Positions 49,905 to 64,000 of a stretch of DNA of 64,000 nt are shown here, one piece after another. The first letter of the stretch is position 1. Every line of letters begins with the position of its first letter. This stretch comes from an uncultured Bifidobacteriaceae bacterium (GTDB taxonomy: Bacteria; Verrucomicrobiota; Verrucomicrobiia; Limisphaerales; UBA11358), in NCBI GenBank assembly GCA_964532525.1, contig CAZHIM010000014.1, positions 19,552 to 83,551 on the forward strand. Reading direction: 5' to 3'. A program made the translations under genes and the position numbers. The notes below the pieces were generated by a model. That model saw only the letters and a program-made list of their open reading frames with translations. It did no database searches and was not told the origin of the DNA.

Positions 49905-50096
49905 AAAACAACAAAACTCTTGTGACAGGGAAATAGCGCCCGGGCAATGCCCCGCCTATCTCGGACACATTCGTTCACTTTACCACAGCCCGGCCCGGCG
50001 ACAAGCAACATCCCGGGGGCGGGCATTGGCATTTCAGCCGACGCACCGTTCGGAAGACGTTAATGACCAGGACGTTGAGAACCCATTCTGCCTGAT

Positions 50097-51668
50097 TCAG
50101 CCCGCCAAATGCCGCGCTTGGCGCTTGGCGAGCGAATTTCGGGGCGTGGACGCGGCGGCGCGCCGGCCGTTTTCCACCGGCAGAAATTCCCGGAGGCACT
50201 CGGGCACGTCGTGGCGGCCGCCGCGCTGCCAGTCCTCCGCCATCACTTGGGCCACGCCCGCCGAGGCCAGCTTCAATTCGGCGGTGAGAAACGCAAACAC
50301 CAGTTCCGTCAATCGCGCCAGCGCGATGCTGTCCGTCCGCCCCAGCCGGGCATACAACCAGTCGCTCAGGCGCAGGAAGCCGGCGAACGGCGATTCCCCG
50401 CCCCAGATCAGTGGCGTGGCGCGCACGAAGTTGCCGCTATTGCCGATCAGCTCCCAATACTTCGCGAACCGGCGCAGGCGCTGCATCGTGGCAAAGTCAA
50501 TCAACCGGTTTTGCAGGATTTCGTAGGGCGGCAGCGCATGGTAGATCATCTGCCACTCCGCATCGTGCCGCCCGATCGGCGTGCCGCGCAGCCGTTTCAA
50601 AATGCCCACTTGAATCTCCTGCGGCCCCAGCGCAATCAATCGGTCAAAGCCCGCCGCAAAGCTCTCCACCGTCTCCCCCGGCAGGCCGGCGATGAGATCG
50701 GCGTGAATGTGGACGCTCGTGTGGGTGCGCAAAAAATTGAGATTGTCCGCCAGCCGCTCGTAATTCTGCCGGCGGCTGATGTTCTGGCCCACCTCGGGAT
50801 TGAACGTCTGCACCCCCACCTCGAATTGCAGCGCGCCGGGCGGGAACCGGGCGATGACCTCCCGCAATTCCCCCGGCAGCCGGTCCGGGACCATTTCAAA
50901 ATGATAAAAATTCCCCGGCTGGTGCCGCGCCAGGAAGAATTCCAGGATCGCCCGGCCGGTGGCGATGTTCAGGTTGAACGTCCGGTCCACGAACTTGAAC
51001 TGCTTGAGCCCGCGATCCAGCAGCTTCTGCATCGCCGCCAAAAATGTCTCCAGCGGCACCGCCCGCACCGGGATGTCCAGCGACGACAGGCAGAATTCGC
51101 AGGTGAAGGGACAGCCTCGCGACGCCTCGACATAGATGATGCGATGCGCGATGTCCGCGTCCGTGTAATACTCGTAGGGCAGGGCGAGGCGCGAAAACTC
51201 CGGCGGCTCGGCGGGAATGATCTTGGGCAGGGGCGCCCGGCTCGGGGCGTGGCCGTTCCCCTCCGGCGAACCGTTCCCGCCCGCCAGCAATTCCCCGCAC
51301 ACTTCCGCAAATTTCAGGTCGCCCTCGCCGGTGATCACGTGATCCGCCAGCCGCACCAGTTCCTGCCCCTCGGTTTCATAGCTCACTTCCGGACCGCCCA
51401 AAACGATGATGATGTCCGGCCGCACGCGTTTGATGGCCGCCACCACGGCGGTGGTTTCCGTCACGTTCCAGATGTAAACGCCCAGGCCGAGGATTTTGGG
51501 CGCGCGGGCCAGCAGTGCTTCGGCGATGTCCAGCGGGCGCTGGTTGATGTCGAACTCCGCGATGGCCGCGCGCGGCTGCAGCGCGCCGAGGTTGGCGAAG
51601 AGATAGCGCAAGCCGAACGCGGCGTGAATGAACTTCGCGTTGAGGGTGGCGAGGACGATGTCCGGCAT
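50097..51668 (-). CDS. B12-binding-domain radical SAM protein (DUF4080-type)
   Basis: The ATG at 51668 gives [23 protein letters not shown]..., and the radical SAM motif is [13 protein letters not shown]. Confidence 0.85.
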
Positions 51669-51725
51669 TGCCGCCAAATTACCAACGTTTGCAGCAAACG
51701 CCAAAAGGGAAATCGGTCCGGCCGG

Positions 51726-54443
51726 TCAGGGTTTCGCGGCGGCGGCCTTCATGGCCAAGGCCCGGGCGAGGTTGTTGCTGGCCTCCGCGGAATCCGGCCG
51801 CAGGCGGACGGCTTCCCGGAACTCAACGATGGCGTCATCCAGCCGCCCCTGGCCGCCCAGCACCACGCCGAGCCGGTCGTGCGCCGCGGCATAATCCGGT
51901 TTCAGGCGGATGGCGGCTTGGAACTCGGCGATGGCCTCGCTCGCGCGGCCCAGTTTGGCCAGGGCCACCGCGAGGTAATGGTGCGCCGGCGCGAAATCCG
52001 GCGCCAGCCGGGTGACGGTTCGAAATTCGCCGATGGCGTCATCCACCCGGCCCAATTTGTAGAAGGCGCTGGCGAGATTGTAGTGTGCGTCCCGGTAGTC
52101 GGGCTTGCTGTGGACGGCGGCCTGGAACTGGGCGATGGCGTCATCGGCGCGGTCCCTGGCCGCGAGCAGATTGCCGAGGTTGTTATGGGCCTCGGCAAAG
52201 TCCGGGGCCAGCCGGATGGCCGCCTGGAACTGGCCCATCGCTTCGTCCGTGCGCCCCGCCTTGGCGAACAGGTTGCCCAGTTTGTAATGGGTGTCGGCAT
52301 CATCGGGCCGGAGGCTCAGGGCCTGCTGAAACTGCGCGATGGCGCCGTCCGGCTGGCCGTTTTTGGCCAGCAAATTCGCCCAGTTGTAGTGCGCATCGGC
52401 ATCATCCGGCTGGAGCCGGAGGGCCGCTTGAAATTCCCTGATGGCGGCCTGCGTTTGACCTCGCATCGCCAGCACGTTGCCCAGGTTGTTGTGGGCTTCG
52501 GGCCAGTCGTTTTTCAGCCGGACCGCTGCTTGCAACTGGACGATCGCATCGTCAGCCTGCCCCTGGCTGGCCAGCGCGTTGCCCAGCTCGAAATGGGCCT
52601 GCGGATCATCCGGTTTTTCGCGCAACGCCTGCTGAAACTGGCTGATGGCCAAGTCGGTTTGTCCGCCCCGGGCCAGCAAAGTGCCAAAGTTATAGTGGGC
52701 GTCGGGGTAGTCCGGGCTAAGGGCGATGACCTGCTGAAATTGGGCGATGGCTTCATTGGTCCGGCCGGCCAAGTCCAGCAGCGCCGCCAGATTGTTGCGG
52801 GCCTCAACGTAATCGGGCCGCAGGCGGACGGCGTTCTGGAATTCCTGGAAGGCGGCGTTGGTTTGGCCTTGGGCCAGCAGCATTGTGGCGAGATTGTTGT
52901 GGGGATCGGCAAACCCCGGTTGCAGGCGGATGGCAGTCTCATATTCCCTGATGGCGGCCGGCGTTTGGCCCTTCTGTTTCAAGGCGTTGCCGAGGTTGTT
53001 GTGGGCCTCCACGCAGTTGGCTCGGTCCCGGAGGGCGGCCTGAAACTCGTTGAGGGCGGCATCCACCTGGCCCCGGTCCATCAGGACGGTTCCGAGATTG
53101 TTGCGCGCCACCTCGTTGTCGGCCGTGACTTCCAGCGAGTGGCGGAAGAGAATCTCGCTGTTCTGCCAAAAGCCAATCTGGTGCCAGGTTGCAGCGCACA
53201 GAATGACGGCTGCCAAGCCGGCCAGCGCGCCGGCCAGCGCCTCCTGTCGCCAGCGCCGGGCCAACTCGGAGATGCCCCAGACGATCAGCACGAATATGCC
53301 CAACGACGGGATGTAAGTGTAACGATCCGCCATGGCCTGAATGCCCACCTGCACCAAGCCAATCACCGGCACCAGCGTGCCGATAAACCAAAACCAGCCC
53401 ACCGGCAGAAACGGATATGGTCGCCGGGCCAGCCAAACCAGGATCGAAATGCCCGCCAGACATGCGCCAGCCAGAAGCACCCCCCCCACCGGCCAGTGCC
53501 CGGGATGCGGATAGAAGAATGCCAGGTCCACCGGCCAGACCAGCTTGAGCAGATAGCGGCCATAGGAAACCACGGCATTCTCGCACCGGCTGCCAAAAGT
53601 CAGGTGTTCCAATATCTTCATGGCGCCCGTTTGGTGTTGGACGTAAAACGTCATCAGGCTCCCCGCTGCTGCCAAGGCAAAGAAGGGAAGCTTTTCCACC
53701 AGCAACCGCCCCGCGCGGCCCGGCTGGAACCGTTTCAACGGCCAATAATCCAACAGCAGCAGGACAAACGGCCACGTCACCAGCATCGGCTTGCTCAGCA
53801 GCCCGAGGGCGAAACAAAAGCAGGCCAGCCAGTACCAGGCCGAGACATAAAACACGGGGCCGGCGCCGGCTTCCGCGGCTTCCGCATCCTTGGTTTTCCG
53901 CCCCTGCGCATAAGCCGAGTACAGCAGCAGTGTCACGAGCCCGAAGCAAGTGCTCAGCACGTCCTTGCGTTCCGCCACCCACGCCACCGACTCCACGTGC
54001 AACGGGTGCCAGCCAAAGAGGGCTGCCACCATTGCGCTCCGCCAGCGTGCCCCGGTGAGCCGGTGCAACAGCAGGAAGACCAGCACCGTGTTCAGGGCGT
54101 GCAGCAAAATGCTGGTGAGATGATGTCCCCACGGCCGCAAGCCATACCACTGGCAGTCCAGCATGTGGGACAGAACGGTCAGCGGATGCCAGTTCGAGCA
54201 AACCACAGCCGTAAGCGCCCACCGGATGTTTTCCAAAGTCAGACCGCGTTGCACCTCGAGATTTGCCGTTACATATTGGCCATCGTCATAGGCCACGAAT
54301 TCATGACGCAGGACGGGCGTATAGAGTGCGAAGGTGAGCAACCCCAATACGGCGGCCAGCAACCAGGCGGGAAAGCGCGTCCGTTTCACCGACACGGATT
54401 CCCCGGTTGGCGGGTGGGCGGCTTCAGTTGGTGGTCGGAACAT
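51726..54443 (-). CDS. TMTC-like membrane protein: N-terminal multi-TM (O-mannosyltransferase-like) domain plus long C-terminal TPR array
   Basis: N-terminal FVAYDDGQYV...NWHPLTVLSHMLDCQ...GHHLTSILLHALN with about 10 TM helices, then more than 12 TPR units (AHNNLGN.L...G....AI..F..A..L.PD). Confidence 0.8.
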   Translation of the reverse strand: MFRPPTEAAHPPTGESVSVKRTRFPAWLLAAVLGLLTFALYTPVLRHEFVAYDDGQYVTANLEVQRGLTLENIRWALTAVVCSNWHPLTVLSHMLDCQWYGLRPWGHHLTSILLHALNTVLVFLLLHRLTGARWRSAMVAALFGWHPLHVESVAWVAERKDVLSTCFGLVTLLLYSAYAQGRKTKDAEAAEAGAGPVFYVSAWYWLACFCFALGLLSKPMLVTWPFVLLLLDYWPLKRFQPGRAGRLLVEKLPFFALAAAGSLMTFYVQHQTGAMKILEHLTFGSRCENAVVSYGRYLLKLVWPVDLAFFYPHPGHWPVGGVLLAGACLAGISILVWLARRPYPFLPVGWFWFIGTLVPVIGLVQVGIQAMADRYTYIPSLGIFVLIVWGISELARRWRQEALAGALAGLAAVILCAATWHQIGFWQNSEILFRHSLEVTADNEVARNNLGTVLMDRGQVDAALNEFQAALRDRANCVEAHNNLGNALKQKGQTPAAIREYETAIRLQPGFADPHNNLATMLLAQGQTNAAFQEFQNAVRLRPDYVEARNNLAALLDLAGRTNEAIAQFQQVIALSPDYPDAHYNFGTLLARGGQTDLAISQFQQALREKPDDPQAHFELGNALASQGQADDAIVQLQAAVRLKNDWPEAHNNLGNVLAMRGQTQAAIREFQAALRLQPDDADAHYNWANLLAKNGQPDGAIAQFQQALSLRPDDADTHYKLGNLFAKAGRTDEAMGQFQAAIRLAPDFAEAHNNLGNLLAARDRADDAIAQFQAAVHSKPDYRDAHYNLASAFYKLGRVDDAIGEFRTVTRLAPDFAPAHHYLAVALAKLGRASEAIAEFQAAIRLKPDYAAAHDRLGVVLGGQGRLDDAIVEFREAVRLRPDSAEASNNLARALAMKAAAAKP

Positions 54444-54601
54444 ACGGATGTCGGGGTTTCGCGGCTCTTGGCGGCTTGGGCCTCATTTGTTAAACGAAAA
54501 CCGGCTGGTTGTGCAAGCCGCTTTGGCGGCGCCGTTCGTCCGTTCGTCCCGGCGGAGGGCCGCCCGCGGCAGGTCTGCGAAAAGACCGGTTGGGGGGAAG
54601 A

Positions 54602-54676
54602 TGGTGCGCGGTAGAGGTTTCGAACCTCTGACCCCTACCGTGTCAAGGTAATGCTCTACCACTGAGCTAACCGCGC
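54602..54676 (-). tRNA. tRNA-Val (anticodon GAC), CCA encoded
   Basis: The reverse complement folds as a cloverleaf. Acceptor GCGCGGT/ACCGCGC; D-stem GCTC/GAGC; anticodon stem TTACC/GGTAG; loop TTGACAC; T-stem AGAGG/CCTCT; loop TTCGAAA; 3' ACCA. Confidence 0.9.
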
Positions 54677-54831
54677 AACCGATGGCCATGTTTGCTAGCG
54701 AACACCGCATTTTCATTGAGGTTTTACGGCCTTTTCCTCAACTCCGCTCAACGCAACTTCTACCAAGCTCCTACCAACCTGTTGCCCTTTTGCGATTGAT
54801 TTTTTGGGCACAAACGGGCACAGTTGGCTCG

Positions 54832-55947
54832 ATGAAATTCTCGATTTCATATTTGCCTGCCCGCAAGCGCTGGCGATTAGAATATCGTAATGGGAAACGC
54901 TTCAGGGTCAACTTCAAAACAAAAGCCCTGGCCCAGGCGGAGGCTGAACGGCTCCAGGAAGACCTGGAAAGGGCCGGCGCGGTGTGGGTGGCCATGTCAC
55001 ACCCGGAACGGAATGAACTCATGTCTGTGGTCACGGAGATGCGCGAGGAGGGCCTTACGCCGCGGCAGGCCTGGGATGAATTCAAAAGGCTGCGGGTGGC
55101 CGGTGGGGCACAAACGGGCACAGTGACGGCAGAAAAGGCGCTAACGGAGTTGCACAATGCCAAGCTGGCCGCGGGGCGGGCCAAGCTCTACCTGGCCAAC
55201 TTGAAGCAGATCATCGGTGATTTCATTGTGGGCCGTGAGTATCTGCCAGTGTCCAGGTTCACCTTGGCGGACGTGGAGACCTTCCTGAACCAGTACAACA
55301 TCGAGTATCGGAGCACGCTCCGCAGCCGGCTGGCGACTTGGTTCCGGTTCGCTGTCAAACGCGGCTACCGGGCGGATAACCCCTGTGAGCGCTTGGAGAC
55401 CATCCGGCTCCGCAGGGGAGCCCCGCGGGTGTTCACGCTGCCGGAGGTCACGAAGGCCCTGGGCTGGCTCCAGGTGCATCCGCGGGCGCTGGCGTGGTTC
55501 TACCTGTCCACTTTTGCCGGCTTGCGCCCGGAGGAGGCTCAAAAGACAACGTGGAAGATGATAAATTTTCAGGACGGGTGGATACGCTGCGAGGAGCAGA
55601 CCACCAAGACCGGCGAGCGCCGGGTGGTTTACCCGCGGCCCGGGGTCATGGACGCCTTGAAATACGCGAAGGCGGCGGGCAGCGTGCTTCCCTTGTCCCG
55701 CCTGCAAATGAGACGGGAACGGACGAAATTGCGCAAGGCCCTGGGGCTGGAAGCATGGCCGAAGGACGTGACACGGCACACCGCAGCCTCCATGTGGCTG
55801 GCTGCTGCTGGGGAGGCATCCAAGGTGGCTGGCCAGCTCGGGCATAGCGAACGCATCCTGCACAGCCGCTACAAGGCCTTGGTGTTGCGGACCGACGCGC
55901 AAAAGTTCTGGTGGCTGGTGGACAGTTGTGCCGAGCTGCCATCGTAA
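54832..55947 (+). CDS. Tyrosine-type site-specific integrase
   Basis: The ATG at 54832 gives MKFSISYLPARKRWRLEYRNGKRF... The catalytic region has GLRPEEA, TRHTAASMWL and GHSERILHSRY (R..H-x-x-R..H..Y pattern). Lies directly beside tRNA-Val. Confidence 0.85.
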   Translation: MKFSISYLPARKRWRLEYRNGKRFRVNFKTKALAQAEAERLQEDLERAGAVWVAMSHPERNELMSVVTEMREEGLTPRQAWDEFKRLRVAGGAQTGTVTAEKALTELHNAKLAAGRAKLYLANLKQIIGDFIVGREYLPVSRFTLADVETFLNQYNIEYRSTLRSRLATWFRFAVKRGYRADNPCERLETIRLRRGAPRVFTLPEVTKALGWLQVHPRALAWFYLSTFAGLRPEEAQKTTWKMINFQDGWIRCEEQTTKTGERRVVYPRPGVMDALKYAKAAGSVLPLSRLQMRRERTKLRKALGLEAWPKDVTRHTAASMWLAAAGEASKVAGQLGHSERILHSRYKALVLRTDAQKFWWLVDSCAELPS

Positions 55948-56114
55948 TGCTGCCAGAACCTCATTTCAGGCTGCCGCTGGACCCGCGCAGATCTCATGAA
56001 GCCGGCGCTCCGCCTGGGCGGCGATGGTATGATCGTCGGTTTCAAAGATGACCTTGGCAGAGCCAGACTGGTGGTCAATAAAAGGCAGGGGGGAGAAGTC
56101 CTATACAGAATCAT

Positions 56115-56167
56115 CTAACTATTATCTATTATTAACTATTAAATAATTGATAATAGATAATAGTTAG
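56115..56167. repeat. 53-bp A/T-only-rich near-perfect palindrome (function unknown; candidate protein-binding or recombination site)
   Basis: ctaactattatctattat (56115-56132) is the exact reverse complement of ataatagataatagttag (56150-56167). The 17-nt centre also pairs apart from 2 mismatches. Built from TAACTATTA-type units. Confidence 0.8.
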
Positions 56168-56253
56168 TAGCGTTTTATATAGAGCTTTCCCCCTCGGGTT
56201 TTCCCGCGGAGCCCCGGCCCCGGAGAAATTGCCCCCGGCCCCCGCTTTTTTTG

Positions 56254-56290
56254 AAAAATTAACCCCACCCCTCCCCTGCCAGGAGGTAGC
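56254..56290. repeat. Left copy of a ~38-nt imperfect inverted repeat bracketing the recombinase cassette
   Basis: aaaaattaaccccacccctcccctgccaggaggtagc compared with the reverse complement of 57677-57715 (aaaaaattaacccccaccctcccccatcaggaggtaagc). Mostly identical with a few 1-nt indels. Confidence 0.7.
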
Positions 56291-56602
56291 TCCGATTTCC
56301 TGCACTCTAGATGAAGCAATATGTCCAGTGACGACAGGCGAGCAGTATAATATAGGTGGAACTCCGCCACGTTGCATCCTGGTGGCCATCTCTGGGACCA
56401 GGCAAGCCAACTCGGTCGGTAAGTTTTAGACCAGAAGAAGCCGGGCTGAGGGCGCACGCAGGCGCGCTGGAGGCCCGCCCGGACGCGTTTGATCGCGCGG
56501 CGGGGTGGAGAAGAGCCGGCAAGGCTGCTGCGAGCCCCTGGAGGGCATTCCTGCCCCGCCGGACGGACGCTACGCTGCCGGCGTTGCCGCCCGAAGCATG
56601 GT

Positions 56603-57160
56603 TCAGGTGGTCGAAACCGGGATTTTCAATTCCCGGGCTATCGCCCGAACCCCGAGCCCACGCGCCTTGAGCGTCAGCACTTCCGCGGGAACCCGGTTAT
56701 GCTTTGGATGCCGGCCAAGCTTCACGCCGCGGGCCTTGGCGGCGGCCAGCCCGGCGTTAACCCGCTCGCGGATTATCTCGCGCTCAAACTCAGCCACGGC
56801 CATGAGGACGTTCATTTGGAGCCGGCCAACCGGATTGCTGTTGCTGGTGTCTATCCCCTGGCTCGTGGCGATCAGGGCGACGCCATTACGCTCCAATTCG
56901 GCCAGCAGCAGCGCCAGATGGGGCAAGGAGCGGCCCAAGCGGTCGAGCTTGAAGACTACCACCCGCTCAATCTTGCCAGCCCGTATGGCGGCCATGAGCG
57001 CGTCGAGGCCGGGCCGGACGAATTTGGCCCCCGATATCTGGTCAGAGTAGATTTGGACTTCGCGCCAGCCGCGGCGCTCGCAATAGGCGCGGAGTTCGTG
57101 TTCTTGGCTGTCGGTTGTTTGCCCGTCAGTCGAAACTCGGACATAGAGTGCAGTGTTCAT
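56603..57160 (-). CDS. Serine recombinase (resolvase/invertase family)
   Basis: MNTALYVRVSTDGQ (catalytic Ser), RPGLDALM, VFKLDRLGRS, EFEREIIRERVNAGL and a GR-rich linker. The C-terminal HTH ends abruptly at ...IARELKIPVSTT. Confidence 0.9.
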   Translation of the reverse strand: MNTALYVRVSTDGQTTDSQEHELRAYCERRGWREVQIYSDQISGAKFVRPGLDALMAAIRAGKIERVVVFKLDRLGRSLPHLALLLAELERNGVALIATSQGIDTSNSNPVGRLQMNVLMAVAEFEREIIRERVNAGLAAAKARGVKLGRHPKHNRVPAEVLTLKARGLGVRAIARELKIPVSTT

Positions 57161-57212
57161 AAAATCAATTGTATCCGGACACTAATTTGTGCTTGGGTAT
57201 TCCCTCGGGAAT

Positions 57213-57464
57213 TTAGTGCTTTTTAGGCTTCTTTTGGGGGAGGGATTCCGGCCGGCCTGAATCGTCGGTGGCGGCTTTCAAGAAGACGCTCCCGGTTAAA
57301 GGCGGTTTTTCGCCTGGCTTTGCCCCGTTTGCCGCGGGCCGGGACAGAATTCTCCAGCCGCCGGAGAAGAGTTCGGGCGCGTTCTCCGGCGTGGCCAATC
57401 TTATCCGCGAAGTTGTCTCCGGGCTTCCAGGCGCCGTTTGTTTTGCATTTTTATCGTTTTTCAT
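57213..57464 (-). CDS. Small basic protein (hypothetical) upstream of the recombinase
   Basis: ATG at 57464 is preceded by GGAGAtaatc. The 83-aa product is Lys/Pro-rich with no recognisable family. The track ORF extends to 57533. Confidence 0.35.
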   Translation of the reverse strand: MKNDKNAKQTAPGSPETTSRIRLATPENAPELFSGGWRILSRPAANGAKPGEKPPLTGSVFLKAATDDSGRPESLPQKKPKKH

Positions 57465-57566
57465 GATTATCTCCACTTTCTCTTTTCTGGTTCCATCCAG
57501 GACTCCCCCAAGCCGGCGGGGAGGTACACGCACACCAGCCTGGTTCTGCCCCTCCCCTATAAAGCA

Positions 57567-57608
57567 CCTTCAATTTATCAATTTAATTTTAAGTTGATAA
57601 ATTGAAGG
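57567..57608. promoter_or_regulatory. 42-bp A/T-rich palindrome containing a hix-like 26-bp dyad (candidate serine-recombinase site or operator)
   Basis: ccttcaatttatcaa (57567-57581) and ttgataaattgaagg (57594-57608) are exact inverted repeats. The inner 26 bp read TTATCAATTTAA-TT-TTAAGTTGATAA (57575-57600). Lies ~100 nt upstream of the small-ORF/recombinase unit. Confidence 0.6.
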
Positions 57609-57676
57609 GGGTTTATGGAGGTTTTGCAGAGACCGAGGCCCCGCCGCCCGCCCAGACCCCCCAGGGTCAAAAAATG

Positions 57677-57715
57677 GCTTACCTCCTGATGGGGGAGGGT
57701 GGGGGTTAATTTTTT
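57677..57715. repeat. Right copy of the ~38-nt imperfect inverted repeat
   Basis: gcttacctcctgatgggggagggtgggggttaatttttt. See 56254-56290. Confidence 0.7.
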
Positions 57716-57984
57716 ACAAAATATCCACGGCGGGGGTATTTTCCCCATAGGCCAGCTCCGATGCCTTCGATGTATGGTCATGGTCGTTTTTTTTGCGTGC
57801 TGCCTAACGCATCAGGGAGGATGTGCGACGACAGAATCCCTCCGCGGGATAAGGTCATCGGGAACAGTTTTCGGAGAATCTTTTCTCCGCACATCGGAGC
57901 CGGTGTTAGGCCCCTACCACCGTGACTCTCGCACCCGCGAAAGCTCGGATTGGTAGCCATGACCGCTACGGGTCAGGCATTCCT

Positions 57985-58848
57985 GATGCTCAAAACAGAG
58001 TGTGCCTTAGTACTAAAAAGGCAAGCGCAAAGTGGTCGGGCGTCGCATCCGGCGGCAGCGTCAGCTCCACCCAGGTCAGTGCCTGCGCCAAACTCCGTGG
58101 ATGCCGAGGTCCAGCTCTGACGTGACCACCCCCTCGTCGCCTGCCCCTATGTGGTGTTCGATGCCCGCTACGAAAAGGTCCGCCACGACGGTCAACTCCG
58201 CGATTGCGCCGTCCTCGTTGCCCGGACATCACCGCCGAAGGCAAGCGCTCCATCTTGGGCGTCAGCGTCGCCCTCAGTGAAGCCGAAGCCCATTGGCGCA
58301 CCTTCTTCCAAGGCCTCGTCCAGCGCGGCCTCTGCGGCGTCACTTACATCGTCAGCGATGACCACCCCGGCATGGCTGCCGCCCGTAAAGCCGTCTTTGG
58401 CCCCGTCCCGTGGCAGCGCTGCCAGTTCCATCTTCAGCAAAACGCCCAAGCCTACGTGCCCCGCCTGGATCAGCGGGCCGAAGTCGCCCGCGCCATCCGC
58501 AGTGTCTTGGACTGCCCCTCGCGCCACGCCGCTGAATTGCGGCTCAAGGAAATCGCCAGCGACTATGCCAAAAGCGCGCCCCAACTGGCCCGCTGGCTGG
58601 AGGAAAACCTGCCCCAAGGCTTCACCGTCTTCGCCTTGCCCGCCGCCCATCAGAAACGCCTGCGCACCTCCGATGCGCTCGAACGCGTCAACCAGGAACT
58701 CAAACGCCGCACCCGCGTGGCCCGCGTCTTTCCGAACGAGGTCTCCCTCCTGCGGCTCACCACCGCGCTCTTATGCGAAACCAATGACGATTGGGAAACC
58801 GGAAAAATTTACCTCAACATGGAGAACCAAACCCGGCCCTCAGTTTAA
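57985..58848 (+). pseudogene. IS256-family (Mutator-type) transposase, 5'-truncated with frameshifts and an in-frame stop
   Basis: The C-terminal two-thirds can be read across three frames: ...VSSTQVSACAKL / VDAEVQL*RDHPLVACPYVVFDARYEKVRHDGQLRDCAVLVA / ITAEGKRSILGVSVALSEAEAHW...PWQRCQFHLQQNAQAYVPR...LRTSDALERVNQELKRRTRVARVFPNE. Stop codon at 58118-58120. Confidence 0.8.
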
Positions 58849-58971
58849 ATGCTAACAACTTTTACAGAAAAAACTTGCGCCTCCTGTGAACAAATAAGGC
58901 TTGTCAATTGGAGGCTTACTGATTACCACCAAACGACAGCATTCAGGATTGACAGGAACATCAGATCATTT

Positions 58972-59595
58972 ATGAAACCGTATCCCATTCAACTTGAAAT
59001 TTCCGGCCCAACTGCCATGTGGACGCGGCCCGACACCGGTTCGTCGCCCGTTTCCTATACCGCACCCACATTCAGCGCCGTGAAGGGTATTTTCGAATCT
59101 GTCCTGCGCTGGAAATCCGTGAATGTCCGGCCGATGAAGGTCGAGATTTGTGCGCCCGTGCAATTCCACCGATACACGACGAATTACGGCGGGCCGCTCC
59201 GAGCCAGCGACGCCATGAACAAAGGCGCGTCATTCCAATTTTACGCCGTCGTGTTGGTCAATGTGTGCTACCGGCTTTACGCGCAGGCCGAGTTTGCCGG
59301 GCATCACGACAGCACCACTTGGCCGCCACATGCGTATCATGATGTTTTCAATCGCGCCTTGGAACGCGGCCAATGGTTCTACACGCCGTGTTTGGGATGG
59401 AAGGAATTCGCCCCGGATTATGTCGGCCCGTTTCGCTCGGAAACTCGCGTTTGCGAAGCCGAGAACCACGAACTGTCCTCGATGCTGCGGATGGTATTTG
59501 ACCAGATGCAGGGCGGTAAAGTGAAGCCGTCTTTCTACAACATGCGCAATCACCCCAACCTCCGCGTCGAGAAAGGAGTCCTCACCTATGCTTAA
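58972..59595 (+). CDS. cas5: CRISPR-associated protein Cas5, subtype I-C-like
   Basis: MKPYPIQLEISGPTAMWTRPDTGSSPVSYTAPTFSAVKGIFESVLRWKSVNVRPMKVEICAPVQF follows the Cas5d pattern (xxGxxAxxTRPE/D...VSY..PT.SA.KGI.E...WK). ATG at 58972. Confidence 0.8.
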   Translation: MKPYPIQLEISGPTAMWTRPDTGSSPVSYTAPTFSAVKGIFESVLRWKSVNVRPMKVEICAPVQFHRYTTNYGGPLRASDAMNKGASFQFYAVVLVNVCYRLYAQAEFAGHHDSTTWPPHAYHDVFNRALERGQWFYTPCLGWKEFAPDYVGPFRSETRVCEAENHELSSMLRMVFDQMQGGKVKPSFYNMRNHPNLRVEKGVLTYA

Positions 59596-61771
59596 CGAAC
59601 TGTCACAGGTGGCAGACTCATTGGAACGGCTTGGCACGGTTCCAGGGTCACGCCATCCGCGGATCAACCCAATGGGCAAGAACAGAGACTTGATTGTTGT
59701 ACTGTTGGGCGGATCTGGCAATCCTTTACGCCTTGAGGTTCTGTCCGGCGAAATTGCCGCAAACTTGTTCCGTATTGAGCACGGTTCAGCCGGTTCGAGC
59801 TTTCCCGGTTTTAACATTCCATCTCCGTTACGGTGGCTTGATGACGCTCTCGTGACGGAATTGAGACCGGCTGTTGAGAAGCTGCTTGCACTCGGCAAGA
59901 ATAAAAACTCCAGCGCAGCAGAAATTGCGCAAGCCGTTCTTGTGCTGTTTAGGCTCTCCAAGCCAGCTGTTTTCAGCGCGAGCCAAGAGAAGCAGTTCTA
60001 CCGATCATGTTCCGAATTGACTTCAGAACTCAACGAATGGCTGCCTCGCGAAATGGCGGAGCTGAAGAATTTTACGACGCTGGTGGAAACGGTTGCAAAA
60101 TCGAAGCCGACGCTGCCTGCATTCGCAGAGTCGCTTACGGGCTTGATGGTGAGTCAAAACGCTGAACCTGACCGCATGATGTTGCTGCTGTTTCAGAAAG
60201 TTTTATTCGGAACACTTGATTGGAAAAAACGCGCTCCCGAGATTGGGTCGCCTGACTATTGGAATGAGAAGGCCAGGCAGGACAAAAACGCCAACCAGCC
60301 AATTTATCTCGACTTGGCGTCGCCAGATATGGTCTTTTGCAGAGTTGCCCATTCAAAGACGAGTGCACTCGTCAATGAGGCCCTTATCCGAACCGAGTCC
60401 AAGGTCTCCGACTGTGAGCCGGAACAAAGGAACTTGACAGAAGACGCCTTCGGCGAAACAGCAGTGTTGCAGGACAAATTTCCACCCGGGCCGAAAGTTG
60501 CGGAACTTGGCAACGTAAAACTATTTTCAGTGAATACCAACGAGGTACAGGCGTTACAGCGGTATCGCTTCAAAGGTTCGCAATCATTTCCAGTTTCGTC
60601 GGCGCGAGTTCAGAAGATGAGTGACGCGTTGCTTTATCTCGCGAGCGAAGATAAGCGTGGCATCACCTGCCGCGCTATACCAAGCGCGCAACCGGACAAA
60701 CGCGACCTGCTCGTTGCCTACTTGGAAGGTGAACCGACAAATCGCACCCAACTGGCGGAAATGTTTGGAGGCGAGGCAAACAAATTTTCGGATGCCGATT
60801 TCGAAGAGATTGCCAGGCCAGTTTTGGAGATGCTTGACGGCAAAGTGGCAGCCAACCCAAATCTCAGTGTTCGGCTGCTGGCGTTCTGCCCGATAGACAA
60901 GGCCAAGAAACAAATTAGCCTTAACCGACGCCTGCGTGTAGGCGATGTTGTCAGGGCGGCACGGGATTGGGAAATGGGCGCACGCAACGTACCTGAAATC
61001 TCTGTTTGGTTCTACGACAAGAACGCCAGACAATCTGTTTTCCGCTCACACACCGCGCCTTGTCCGCTCGAATTGGCATCGGTCGTCAACCGCGTTTGGA
61101 GCGCGGACGCTAAGAGTGGCTTCCAATCCACTTACCAGCGGGCGCTTTCTGTCGCCGACGCCTACGATGTATTTCTTGCGGACACGCCAGTTGCGCAGGA
61201 AAAGACGCGGACCGCCTTGGGATTGCTCATAACTCGAATGAGAACGGTGTTGATCGCCCTCGGCGCGGCAAAAACCGCCCGGGAGTGGACTGCTTTGAGC
61301 GATACTGTTCGCTGGCAGTCAGTCAAAACATTCGCCCTTCTCGGAATTCTCCTCCATCAGCTCAAACACCAAAGAAAGAACTTTATGCAAGAATCCATCA
61401 CTCACGTCGGACGGTTGCTCGCCTTGGCAGACAGCTTGCACCAGCAATATTGCAAACATGTGCGTAAGGGCGAATCACCCTCGCAACTCATCGGTAATGC
61501 CCTTTTCAACACCGCGCTCGACCAACCGGTCTTCGCGTTGGCTCGGTTGGCGGAGCGATTGGCTCCCTATCAAGCTTGGGCGCGGACTTTCCAGAGCAAT
61601 GATCCGGAAGCAGGCGTCGGGTTGATAAAATATTTCCTTGGCGAAATCGCCACCTGCACCGCTGCGATCCAATTGAACGAATTGCCCCAGCGTATGACCG
61701 ACATTGACAAAGCGAAACTCTTGCTCGGCTATCTGGCAGACCACCCCAAAAGCGAAACTTCGAAACAATAA
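59588..61771 (+). CDS. cas8c: CRISPR-associated large subunit, Cas8c (Csd1)-like
   Basis: Positioned between cas5 and cas7, with an 8-nt overlap with cas5. The C-terminal helical region VGRLLALADSLHQQ...LIGNALFNTALDQP...LPQRMTDIDKAKLLLGYL parallels the conserved Cas8c tail (GRLFAVLE..Q ... F.MGYY). At 727 aa it is longer than typical Csd1. Confidence 0.7.
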   Translation: MLNELSQVADSLERLGTVPGSRHPRINPMGKNRDLIVVLLGGSGNPLRLEVLSGEIAANLFRIEHGSAGSSFPGFNIPSPLRWLDDALVTELRPAVEKLLALGKNKNSSAAEIAQAVLVLFRLSKPAVFSASQEKQFYRSCSELTSELNEWLPREMAELKNFTTLVETVAKSKPTLPAFAESLTGLMVSQNAEPDRMMLLLFQKVLFGTLDWKKRAPEIGSPDYWNEKARQDKNANQPIYLDLASPDMVFCRVAHSKTSALVNEALIRTESKVSDCEPEQRNLTEDAFGETAVLQDKFPPGPKVAELGNVKLFSVNTNEVQALQRYRFKGSQSFPVSSARVQKMSDALLYLASEDKRGITCRAIPSAQPDKRDLLVAYLEGEPTNRTQLAEMFGGEANKFSDADFEEIARPVLEMLDGKVAANPNLSVRLLAFCPIDKAKKQISLNRRLRVGDVVRAARDWEMGARNVPEISVWFYDKNARQSVFRSHTAPCPLELASVVNRVWSADAKSGFQSTYQRALSVADAYDVFLADTPVAQEKTRTALGLLITRMRTVLIALGAAKTAREWTALSDTVRWQSVKTFALLGILLHQLKHQRKNFMQESITHVGRLLALADSLHQQYCKHVRKGESPSQLIGNALFNTALDQPVFALARLAERLAPYQAWARTFQSNDPEAGVGLIKYFLGEIATCTAAIQLNELPQRMTDIDKAKLLLGYLADHPKSETSKQ

Positions 61772-61795
61772 TCCGACCCAAAACTGATTCAATTT

Positions 61796-62695
61796 ATGAG
61801 CACAACCAAAGACAACAACCTTGTCCCCCGTATTACTGGACTCCTGATTTTGGAGGTCCGCAAATCCAACCCGAACGGCGACCCGGAGCGCGAGAGTTCC
61901 CCGCGCCAGCGCCCGGATGGCAAAGGCGAAATTTCGCCCGTCTCCGTGAAACGAAAACTCCGCGACCTCGTTCTTGAAAAGGAAGGTGTTGTCTGGGAAG
62001 AAATCAAGAAAGAGCTTGGCCTTGATGACAACCGCTTCCAAATTTTGGAGAGTCGAGGACGTAACCGCGAAGAGATCAAAAAGAAAATGGAGCCGAAAGA
62101 CGGCAAAATCGGCCAGGAGTTTATAGACGCCTATTGGGATGGGCGTCTTTTTGGCAACACGTTTCTTGAGGAAGGCGGAGCGGACACAATTCGTGCTGGC
62201 GTCGCCCATTTTGGCGTGGGAGTTTCCATCGCCCCGGTTGAAATCGAATTCTCAACTTGGACCAGCAAGTCCGGCGTTGAAACTGGAAAAGATCGTGGCA
62301 TGGCGCCAATGGCTTTTCGCGTTGTCAAGCACGGGCTTTATGCCGTTCCGTTTTTCGTGAACGCGAACCAAGCGCACAAGACCGGGTGCACGAAGCAGGA
62401 CGTGGACTTGATGTTGCACCTGCTAAAGCATACCTACGCCAGCACTCGCTCGGTTGTCCGCTCGATGGTCGAGGTCGTTCACGCTCATACGCTCACCCAC
62501 AAGAGCCGCGCAGGTTCGGTTTCTGATTTCGCTTTCATTGACGCCTTCACACCAAAGAAGCTCGAAAAGCCTTCAGAGTCGCTGGCGGATTACGGCGTGC
62601 TTCCAACATGGGAGAAGATCAAAGACCAGACCATCCGCCCCGACAGTAACGTTACGTTCGCGCAATGCGGTGAATACCACGACTACGCTTTGTGA
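61796..62695 (+). CDS. cas7: CRISPR-associated protein Cas7, Csd2/DevR family (I-C/I-B type)
   Basis: LILEVRKSNPNGDPERESSPRQRPDGKGEISPVSVKRKLRDLV contains the SNPNGDP...KRK(I/L)R signature of this family. Confidence 0.8.
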   Translation: MSTTKDNNLVPRITGLLILEVRKSNPNGDPERESSPRQRPDGKGEISPVSVKRKLRDLVLEKEGVVWEEIKKELGLDDNRFQILESRGRNREEIKKKMEPKDGKIGQEFIDAYWDGRLFGNTFLEEGGADTIRAGVAHFGVGVSIAPVEIEFSTWTSKSGVETGKDRGMAPMAFRVVKHGLYAVPFFVNANQAHKTGCTKQDVDLMLHLLKHTYASTRSVVRSMVEVVHAHTLTHKSRAGSVSDFAFIDAFTPKKLEKPSESLADYGVLPTWEKIKDQTIRPDSNVTFAQCGEYHDYAL

Positions 62696-64000
62696 GCGAA
62701 CCCGCGACCAAGCTTGAGCCGCTTGCCCACAGCGCCCGCGATGGGGCACCGGAACAGTCGTATAGCGACCATGCCGGGAATGTCCTTCGTGATGCAACAG
62801 GGTTTGCGCGGGCAGCGGTCGCGTTGTCACCCAAGTGGTGCGGTTCGTTTGTGGCGGCGGTCGAGCGGGCGGCGGCTTACCATGACCTCGGCAAATTGGA
62901 CGAGTTGTTTCAAGAAGTTCTACGCCACAATCGAAAGAACAAGCACGGATTCAATCACGTCGAAGGGGGTACAGCGCATTTGCTGCGCATAAAGCAATTT
63001 GAAGCGGCGTTTACTGCCTATGGTCACCACATCGGGTTGCCGTCGTTTCCCAAGGAAAAGGCCAAGTTTGCCAACGGTCACAATCTCGTGTTTCGCGACA
63101 CGGGCGAACTTGATGGGTTGGAGCAAGCCGCATGGCAGCGAACCGAGGAACATCTGGAAAGCTATTTGTGCCAGCATCACAAATTGCTTGCTCCCATTTC
63201 GCCAGTAGCTAACCAACACTTTACTGGTTTGGTGCGCCGCCTTGCCTTGTCCTGCCTGGTGGACGCCGACCACTCGGATACGGCGCGGCATTACCGGAAC
63301 GAGCGCGAAGTGCCCAGCCCGGATTTGCGCCCGGCGGAGCGTTTGGCGCGGTTGGATGAATATGTGGCCGGTTTGTCCGCGAAGAACCCGCCGGCAAATG
63401 ACAGGGAGCGACAGCGGCTGAAATTACGGCAGTTGGTGTATAGTGCGTGCCGTGAGAGAAAACTTGGCGACGGGGAGCACATTCTTGCGTGTGATAGCCC
63501 CGTTGGCACAGGCAAAACTACGGCAGTCATGGCACATCTCTTGCGCATGGCGGCGGAGCGGAAATTGCGTCGCGTGTTCGTCGTGCTACCGTTTACCAAT
63601 ATAATTGACCAATCGGTGGACGTTTATCGCCGTGCGTTGTGTCTAGCCGGGGAGTCCATGGAGGCAATGGAGAACGTGGTAGCCGCCCATCATCATCGCG
63701 TGGATTTCTCAAGCTATGAGGCACGATGTCTTGCCGCGCGCTGGGATTCACCCATTGTCGTCACCACTGCCGTCCAGTTCTTTGAGACGCTCGCCGCTTG
63801 TGACACAGCTTCTTTGCGTAAACTTCACCAGGTAGCTGGCAGCGCAATTTTTGTGGATGAGGCGCACGCTGCTGTTCCGCCCGCACTTTGGCCGCAAATG
63901 TTTCGCTGGTTGCGGGAACTTTGCGACGACTGGGGTTGCCATCTTGTGCTGGCTTCCGGCACTTTGCCGCGTTTCTGGAATCGTCCCGGATTCCTTAGGG
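62692..64000 (+). CDS. cas3: CRISPR-associated nuclease/helicase Cas3 (HD domain + DEAH helicase; 3' end beyond window)
   Basis: Not in the ORF track because it has no stop in the window. GTG at 62692 overlaps the cas7 stop (GTGA). My translation gives VSEPATKLEPLAHSARDG...AAYHDLGKLDELFQ...LVDADHSD (HD nuclease), then CDSPVGTGKTTAVMAHLL (Walker A) and IFVDEAH (DEAH). Confidence 0.85.
   Translation, partial: MSEPATKLEPLAHSARDGAPEQSYSDHAGNVLRDATGFARAAVALSPKWCGSFVAAVERAAAYHDLGKLDELFQEVLRHNRKNKHGFNHVEGGTAHLLRIKQFEAAFTAYGHHIGLPSFPKEKAKFANGHNLVFRDTGELDGLEQAAWQRTEEHLESYLCQHHKLLAPISPVANQHFTGLVRRLALSCLVDADHSDTARHYRNEREVPSPDLRPAERLARLDEYVAGLSAKNPPANDRERQRLKLRQLVYSACRERKLGDGEHILACDSPVGTGKTTAVMAHLLRMAAERKLRRVFVVLPFTNIIDQSVDVYRRALCLAGESMEAMENVVAAHHHRVDFSSYEARCLAARWDSPIVVTTAVQFFETLAACDTASLRKLHQVAGSAIFVDEAHAAVPPALWPQMFRWLRELCDDWGCHLVLASGTLPRFWNRPGFLR

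Follow-up and report, generated by a model that had tools for sequence, protein, structure and literature searches.

Integrase-borne islands that target tRNA genes classically lie at the tRNA 3′ end. In the 64,000-nucleotide stretch of DNA analysed here (the window; G000:C14:19552-83551), an integrase gene lies instead at the 5′ end of a tRNA-Val(GAC) gene, and an earlier note, made from the sequence alone, had asked whether the attachment geometry is unusual or the tRNA a mere neighbour. Genome G000 is a 5.34-Mb metagenome-assembled genome (MAG) of 152 contigs with 39 tRNAs as called by ARAGORN, and contig C14 runs 3.25 kb beyond the window end. We conclude, with good confidence, that a 22.1-kb integrase-borne island, with little other cargo than a complete type I-C CRISPR–Cas system, integrated site-specifically and in reverse orientation at this single-copy tRNA gene. 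Positions without a contig name are those of the window.

An exact copy of the tRNA 5′ half lies at the far end of the island

The sole tRNA in the window, according to ARAGORN, is an intact tRNA-Val(GAC) gene on the minus strand (54602-54676), which is single-copy among the genome's 39 tRNAs and shares 100% identity with its orthologue in two other genomes (L068 and L078). Adjoining its 5′ end, a long open reading frame (ORF; 54682-55947, plus strand) contains a Phage_integrase domain (PF00589, E 6e-8). Because homologues align only from residue 40-63 of this ORF, and several begin at a methionine matching M51, the integrase gene (int) most likely starts at position 54832; it would then encode a tyrosine integrase of 371 amino acids (54832-55947, plus strand) and is read away from the tRNA. 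With the start of int 155 nt from the tRNA 5′ end, the placement described in the earlier note, an integrase abutting the 5′ end of a minus-strand tRNA, was borne out. In alignment A1, residues R232, R315 and H316 are invariant and K259 and Y347 nearly so; the reading frame and catalytic positions are intact, and no second integrase homologue occurs elsewhere in genome G000.

Searching the genome with the tRNA region revealed a 47-bp direct repeat with 47/47 identity. The left copy (attL, 54636-54682) and the right copy (attR, C43:1578-1624) have the same orientation, the bases that flank the block differ between the two copies on both sides, and there is no third copy in the genome. The block consists of tRNA nt 1-41 plus 6 nt upstream, and spans the 5′ acceptor strand, the D arm and the anticodon stem-loop up to its last pair. 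The attR copy sits 1.45 kb past the only CRISPR array in the genome. The island is on the 5′ side of the tRNA, the partial tRNA copy at its far end is the 5′ half, and direct repeats stand at both ends, one of them within an intact tRNA gene. This search for a repeated tRNA-Val segment, which the earlier note had suggested, decides against a tRNA that is only a neighbour; the unusual geometry is supported both by the repeat and by a metagenome contig that bridges the island, and the right border lies outside the window, as that note had supposed, at C43:1578-1624.

C14 itself bridges the left flank, the repeat and int. Towards its other end it carries the rest of cas3, cas4, cas1 and cas2, ending 186 nt past cas2, and C43 opens with a spacer and two CRISPR repeats, the sole CRISPR repeats in the genome assembly. 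Two JGI metagenome contigs (L066 and L067) were recovered by flank pattern from a metagenome collection. Read as its reverse complement, L066 holds the last 122 nt of C14 near its start, then 113 repeats, then C43:1-3053 at 100% identity; L067 matches C43:1-11281 at 99.99%. Since L066 joins the end of C14 to C43, the island is contiguous, and 22,122 bp lie between the repeats (C14 contributes 12,570 bp, the gap that the array fills 7,975 bp, and C43 1,577 bp).

Putative arm sites accompany both attachment sites

Just upstream of int, two GGGCACA motifs 10 nt apart (54806-54824, plus strand), ending 8 nt before the start of the gene, form a putative integrase-proximal arm. A second exact copy of this 19-nt double unit lies inside int (55106-55124, plus strand), and a distal GGGCACA pair, 12 nt apart, lies 47-65 nt before attR (C43:1513-1531); the distal pair, too, is a putative arm site. 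Tandem GGGCACA pairs occur only four times in the 5.3-Mb genome, and three of the four are those 124 nt from attL, inside int and 47 nt before attR. The 15-mer context of the motif is found genome-wide only in the proximal arm and 71 nt before attR. A related element in genome G496 has the same arm layout with a motif of its own, TGGCAAAC, at both ends. A motif that differs between elements yet matches at both ends of each is what one would expect of arm-type binding sites.

The fourth tandem pair (G000:C10:2700-2830, opposite strand) lies about 45 nt past the 3′ end of another tRNA (...CCGCCA); a related classical element may have left it behind as a remnant of its att arm. The CRISPR leader (C14:86667-86680), too, has one TTTGGGCACAAA motif between cas2 and the first repeat, identical to the context of the integrase arm sites.

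Related integrases occupy tRNA genes in both orientations

We sought relatives of the integrase in 400 genomes of the same order and then in about 186,000 species genomes. In both scans they nearly always adjoin a tRNA (Val, Ala, Leu, Pro, Gly and others). More distant relatives have the classical layout, with the tRNA on the same strand as int and its 3′ end towards int, and in two of them (in G466 and G457) the partial tRNA copies are 3′ parts, running from tRNA nt ~21 or 30 to 9-11 nt past the 3′ end. As the block in the window ends at nt 41 and the classical blocks begin at about nt 21-30, all share the anticodon stem-loop, as expected for a crossover there.

Five of the seven closest integrases (47-49% identity; L073, L075, L077, L078 and L079, from four Verrucomicrobiota MAGs) are reversed at a tRNA-Val(CAC or GAC), which is encoded on the strand opposite to int and turns its 5′ end towards it; the tRNA at which L078 sits is identical to that of the window. 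Copies of a tRNA 5′ half with the same inner boundary (nt 41/42) are present in two genomes with reversed-type elements, on G496:C70 (42 nt, exact) and on G497:C151. The latter copy is of Val(GAC) type, and its flank resembles the region upstream of an unoccupied Val(GAC) gene in the same bin. In a maximum-likelihood tree the window integrase falls in a 12-member clade (support 100/100) with the reversed clade (100/100) and four classical elements. The closest relative of all, L037/L074, was considered as a classical element; the 9 nt at its contig end are ambiguous and its spacing matches the reversed clade, and we left it unlabelled.

Three further loci deserve mention. On G497:C172 and C151 (L125 and L121), the unoccupied tRNA-Val(GAC) and the 5′-half copy have flanks about 85% alike by eye, and the two contigs may be the empty and occupied versions of the site in two strains. 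In L059 (G214:C34), a shortened integrase homologue has beside it two head-to-head copies of a tRNA-Val 3′ half, each 45 nt long and separated by 14 nt (2447-2550), perhaps an inverted att pair or a site that was rearranged. The reversed-type island L119 (G496:C73:1-19999), from another Verrucomicrobiota MAG, encodes a 1750-aa FtsK/HerA-like ATPase, a UvrD-like helicase, a class-V aminotransferase (cysteine-desulfurase-like) and a methyltransferase-like protein, a cargo that looks like defence, perhaps of the DNA-phosphorothioation type.

A proposed route of integration

We propose that the circular form of the element carries an attP in which a core equal to tRNA nt -6 to +41 stands between a distal and a proximal arm, each with two GGGCACA, and that int follows the proximal arm. 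This attP would be recombined by the integrase with the anticodon stem-loop of the chromosomal tRNA, with the crossover presumably in the anticodon loop. Because attP would hold the tRNA's 5′ half and not the 3′ half, the island would come to lie upstream of the gene. The intact tRNA gene would then be a recombinant, its 3′ part chromosomal and its 5′ part from the island side, transcribed from island DNA and divergent from int. The native promoter would stay at attR with a 41-nt tRNA stub, pointing into the distal end of the island, where a terminator-like hairpin (C43:1295-1276) lies on the stub strand about 300 nt inside attR.

With a single-copy tRNA and nothing but island DNA upstream of nt -6, by this geometry the island would have to supply the tRNA promoter. 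In the reversed relatives we noted, by eye, a -35/-10-like pair (TTGCCG or TTGCGC, 17 nt, TAGTAT or TATTAT) that ends 11 nt before the tRNA.

The anticodon stem-loop shared by all blocks would fit the textbook arrangement, with the 7-nt loop as overlap region and the stem arms as core sites (PMC8371274). A mirror-image use of the gene may be tolerable because the reverse complement of the 5′ half reads as an anticodon stem, a hairpin and an acceptor strand (ACCGCGC), much as the 3′ half does. TGACA, at the centre of the Val(GAC) loop, falls one base short of being palindromic.

The cargo is a type I-C CRISPR–Cas system

The earlier note had the gene content switch at the tRNA to an integrase, a serine recombinase, an insertion sequence (IS) remnant and cas genes, and profile matches confirmed this inventory. 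Within the window, the cas genes are cas5c (58972-59595; PADLOC Cas5c, E 1e-23; Pfam Cas_Cas5d), cas8c (59588-61771; PADLOC Cas8c, E 1e-118, full length), cas7c (61796-62695; Pfam Cas_Cas7, E 2e-42, and PADLOC) and cas3, whose profile matches show an N-terminal HD domain and a helicase and which runs from 62692 through the window end (64000) to C14:84543, all on the plus strand. Beyond the window follow cas4 (C14:84540-85184), cas1 (C14:85203-86312; Cas1c profile, E 1e-120) and cas2 (C14:86327-86617), then the leader and the array, which in L066 has 113 repeats of 37 nt and 112 spacers. So many spacers point to long or intense activity.

Type I-C systems have the canonical order cas3-cas5-cas8c-cas7-cas4-cas1-cas2. 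The system in the island resembles them in that all its Cas proteins best match I-C profiles (PADLOC), no cas6 is present, and the 37-nt repeat ends in ATTGAAAC; the set is full and the array adjacent. It departs from them in gene order (cas5-cas8-cas7-cas3-cas4-cas1-cas2), with cas3 between cas7 and cas4 and not first. An IS256/Mutator-family transposase remnant, the C-terminal half (58204-58848, plus strand; PF00872, E 7.5e-48, profile 189-378 of 379), lies directly upstream of cas5, in the usual place of cas3. It differs further in being carried whole between att sites.

Between int and the IS256 remnant lies a resolvase cassette (56247-57721) in 42-nt inverted repeats (56247-56288 and 57680-57721). 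It encodes a small serine recombinase of 185 aa (56603-57160, minus strand; Resolvase PF00239, E 6e-44), whose catalytic domain is complete and whose HTH_7 domain is matched only to profile position 37 of 45. A/T-rich near-perfect palindromes are found at 56115-56167 and 57545-57630, and the 1.4-kb cassette could be invertible or transposable. At the distal end, three small ORFs of 106, 94 and 94 aa (C43 249-1230, minus strand), two of them overlapping by 29 nt, have no Pfam or PADLOC match; they point the way that a displaced native tRNA promoter would read.

To the left of the tRNA lie genes for a TPR protein (51726-54443, minus strand) and a B12-binding radical-SAM enzyme (50097-51704, minus strand). 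A 1501-aa ORF (50109-54614, plus strand) without a family match overlies both and is probably a spurious long ORF typical of a GC-rich genome.

Evidence against site-specific integration, and alternative explanations

Several observations weigh against a reversed, site-specific integration. Within its clade, the window integrase pairs weakly with a classical Val(GAC) element, L076 (83/81), and not with the reversed clade. A tree that unites all reversed rows was not rejected (approximately unbiased (AU) test, p = 0.19), and it is possible on the sequences that the reversal happened once or twice. The compositional deviation is mild: the part of the island on C14 has 56.8% GC and the cas operon 55.5%, against a genome mean of 60.9% (sd 2.7 in 12.5-kb windows), so that the island ranks at the 8th percentile, and 15% of genome windows have a greater tetranucleotide distance. 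The earlier note's impression of more A/T-rich DNA was therefore right in direction and overstated in degree. The island is no outlier in GC, its tetranucleotide usage is unremarkable, and the break that composition shows at the border is present but weak; we dropped composition as a proof of foreign origin, since the deviation is not significant. The IS remnant and the truncated resolvase suggest decay, and scans of the island ORFs against Pfam, NCBIfam and PADLOC recognised no recombination directionality factor (Xis), transfer or phage genes. The same scans found no relaxase, type IV secretion system, virion or packaging genes, such as an integrative and conjugative element or a prophage would have. 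The 155 nt of island DNA upstream of the tRNA hold no convincing tRNA promoter; the sole consensus match (TTGACC-16-TACGAT, 54911-54884) lies 208 nt upstream of the tRNA, inside int.

Nor did synteny yield an empty attB, as flanking synteny does not hold across the genus. In 15 relatives the tRNA-Val(GAC) locus has no flanking gene in common with either side, and the regions upstream of their tRNAs could not be aligned with that of the window. The left-hand TPR gene is a member of a multi-copy family; the WbsX-like gene of the right flank has 81-86% identical orthologues in seven congeners, none of them next to a tRNA. In the comparison with related genomes that the earlier note had proposed, int or cas genes lie near the orthologous tRNA-Val(GAC) in 0 of 15 related genomes; as the flanks are not syntenic, no empty site was aligned. 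The gene string is not shared by the relatives at this locus, and an att-like repeat exists. In metagenome contigs the predicted attB (71 nt) had no exact match, and no circular junction was found.

How else might the arrangement have arisen? The tRNA could be a mere neighbour, or the island an artefact of assembly or binning in which C43 does not follow C14 or the repeat mis-joins an empty site and a circular element. The genome is indeed a MAG in 152 contigs, and the Logan unitigs of run X1, its probable source, break inside the repeat (54653-54658), none of them spanning attL. We nevertheless hold an artefact or a chance neighbour to be very improbable: the junction of island end, repeat and right flank is present in two JGI contigs that were assembled separately, and one of these extends to the leader on C14; C14 spans the junction of left flank, repeat and int; read depth in X1 is 21-30x over the left flank and 21.7-23.7x over the island, and flank and island depth are likewise equal in X4; and an exact 47-bp tRNA fragment 1.45 kb past the only CRISPR array is no chance match. 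A different origin of the repeat is also conceivable, in which the island did enter here and general (RecA-type) recombination or a later rearrangement duplicated the tRNA 5′ half, for example by a Campbell-type crossover of a tRNA fragment on circular DNA with the chromosomal gene, leaving the integrase a bystander or relic. Homologous recombination could in principle use 47 bp of plain identity, and the signs of decay, the classical element as nearest tree neighbour of the integrase and the failure of the predicted attB pattern to reveal an excision product would all suit such an origin. It would leave unaccounted for that at least four other genomes have related integrases in this geometry, again with the inner boundary at nt 41/42, that the end of the block coincides exactly with the anticodon stem, as a mirror image of the classical blocks, and that element-specific arm-site pairs accompany both att copies; we judge it unlikely.

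Site-specific integration in reverse orientation is the reading that we prefer, and within it a separate question is whether the element can still move. It may have integrated as described and since become a fixed, domesticated CRISPR–Cas locus whose integrase and att sites are relics. We rate this as the most serious of the alternatives, though still rather unlikely. The unrecognised Xis, transfer and phage genes, the IS256 remnant beside a truncated resolvase, an array whose 112 spacers imply long residence, and attB and attP junctions that were not found are what an immobile locus would show; the integrase frame and catalytic positions are intact, however, as are the arm-site pairs, and the att copies are identical at 47/47 positions, all of which speaks against a relic. 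Soil run X5, from another study, covers the left flank (50058-54659) at ~4x and 99-100% identity and has zero depth over 55015-57821 and 59025-61000, which is a hint only, as missing cover is not evidence. A loose end in X5 at 54681, taken up as a candidate alternative junction, proved to be the upstream flank of a tRNA-Val(CAC) gene on C1.

Known systems and the origin of the reversed orientation

The nearest bacterial parallel is an element of Mesorhizobium loti from the work of Zhao and Williams in 2002, whose tyrosine integrase reportedly uses the 5′ part of a tRNA and displaces its native promoter. The window element is like it in using the tRNA 5′ part, displacing the native promoter and not the 3′ end. 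Unlike it, the window element is from Verrucomicrobiota, occupies a tRNA-Val and has CRISPR–Cas cargo; its geometry is common to a small integrase clade nested among classical tRNA-Val integrases, and it has recognisable site pairs in both arms. In archaea, pTN3-like integrases also use a tRNA 5′ half, after which the tRNA is expressed from the integrase promoter, a situation 'seldomly encountered in bacteria' (PMC8371274). Both kinds share an attB that is a tRNA 5′ half. Many of the archaeal integrases are 'suicidal', their gene being split since attP lies within it, whereas int in the window is intact with attP 150 nt upstream, and the likeness drawn here is one of geometry. One paper calls recombination at the 5′-distal part of tRNA genes 'considerably less frequent' than at the 3′ part, citing one bacterial case (Zhao and Williams 2002, to which PMC1635311 refers as well) and several archaeal ones (PMC6563490).

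Against classical tRNA-targeting islands with anticodon-loop sublocation (Williams 2002, as summarised in PMC8371274 and PMC6563490), the window element compares closely in its parts: a tyrosine integrase beside a tRNA, a block that includes the anticodon stem-loop, and arm-type repeats just upstream of int, with an integrase of the same protein family as L076, L083-L089 and others. It differs in that its block, starting at the anticodon stem, extends to the 5′ end plus 6 nt and not to the 3′ end, and in that tRNA and int are divergent where the classical pair is co-directional. L076 and the window element are alike in how far int starts from the tRNA end (~154 and 155 nt) and in having the same double arm site before the start codon.

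The window element is of a rare but known, reversed kind. What is new is that this geometry is common to a small clade of Verrucomicrobiota integrases nested among classical tRNA-Val integrases, and that a complete CRISPR–Cas system is the cargo of a reversed tRNA island. In bacteria, almost every tRNA-targeting element replaces the 3′ end of its target gene without disturbing the promoter, and the reverse has been documented only a few times. A cleanly delimited example with intact parts, in one well-supported integrase clade that holds both orientations, makes the rule of orientation testable, both for the attP features that set it and for how a single-copy, presumably essential tRNA stays expressed. 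The fact that an integrase island carries little besides a whole type I-C system and its 112-spacer array is relevant to the spread of defence systems from genome to genome. Programs that search for islands by 3′ tRNA fragments only would overlook such elements.

As a tentative explanation, to which we give a little less than an even chance, a lineage of Verrucomicrobiota tRNA-Val integrases may have switched, once or twice, from targeting the 3′ half to targeting the 5′ half by way of the near two-fold symmetry of the tRNA gene about its anticodon stem-loop. If so, the window element and L076 would be a natural matched pair for asking what sets the orientation of integration and how transcription of an essential tRNA passes to an element.

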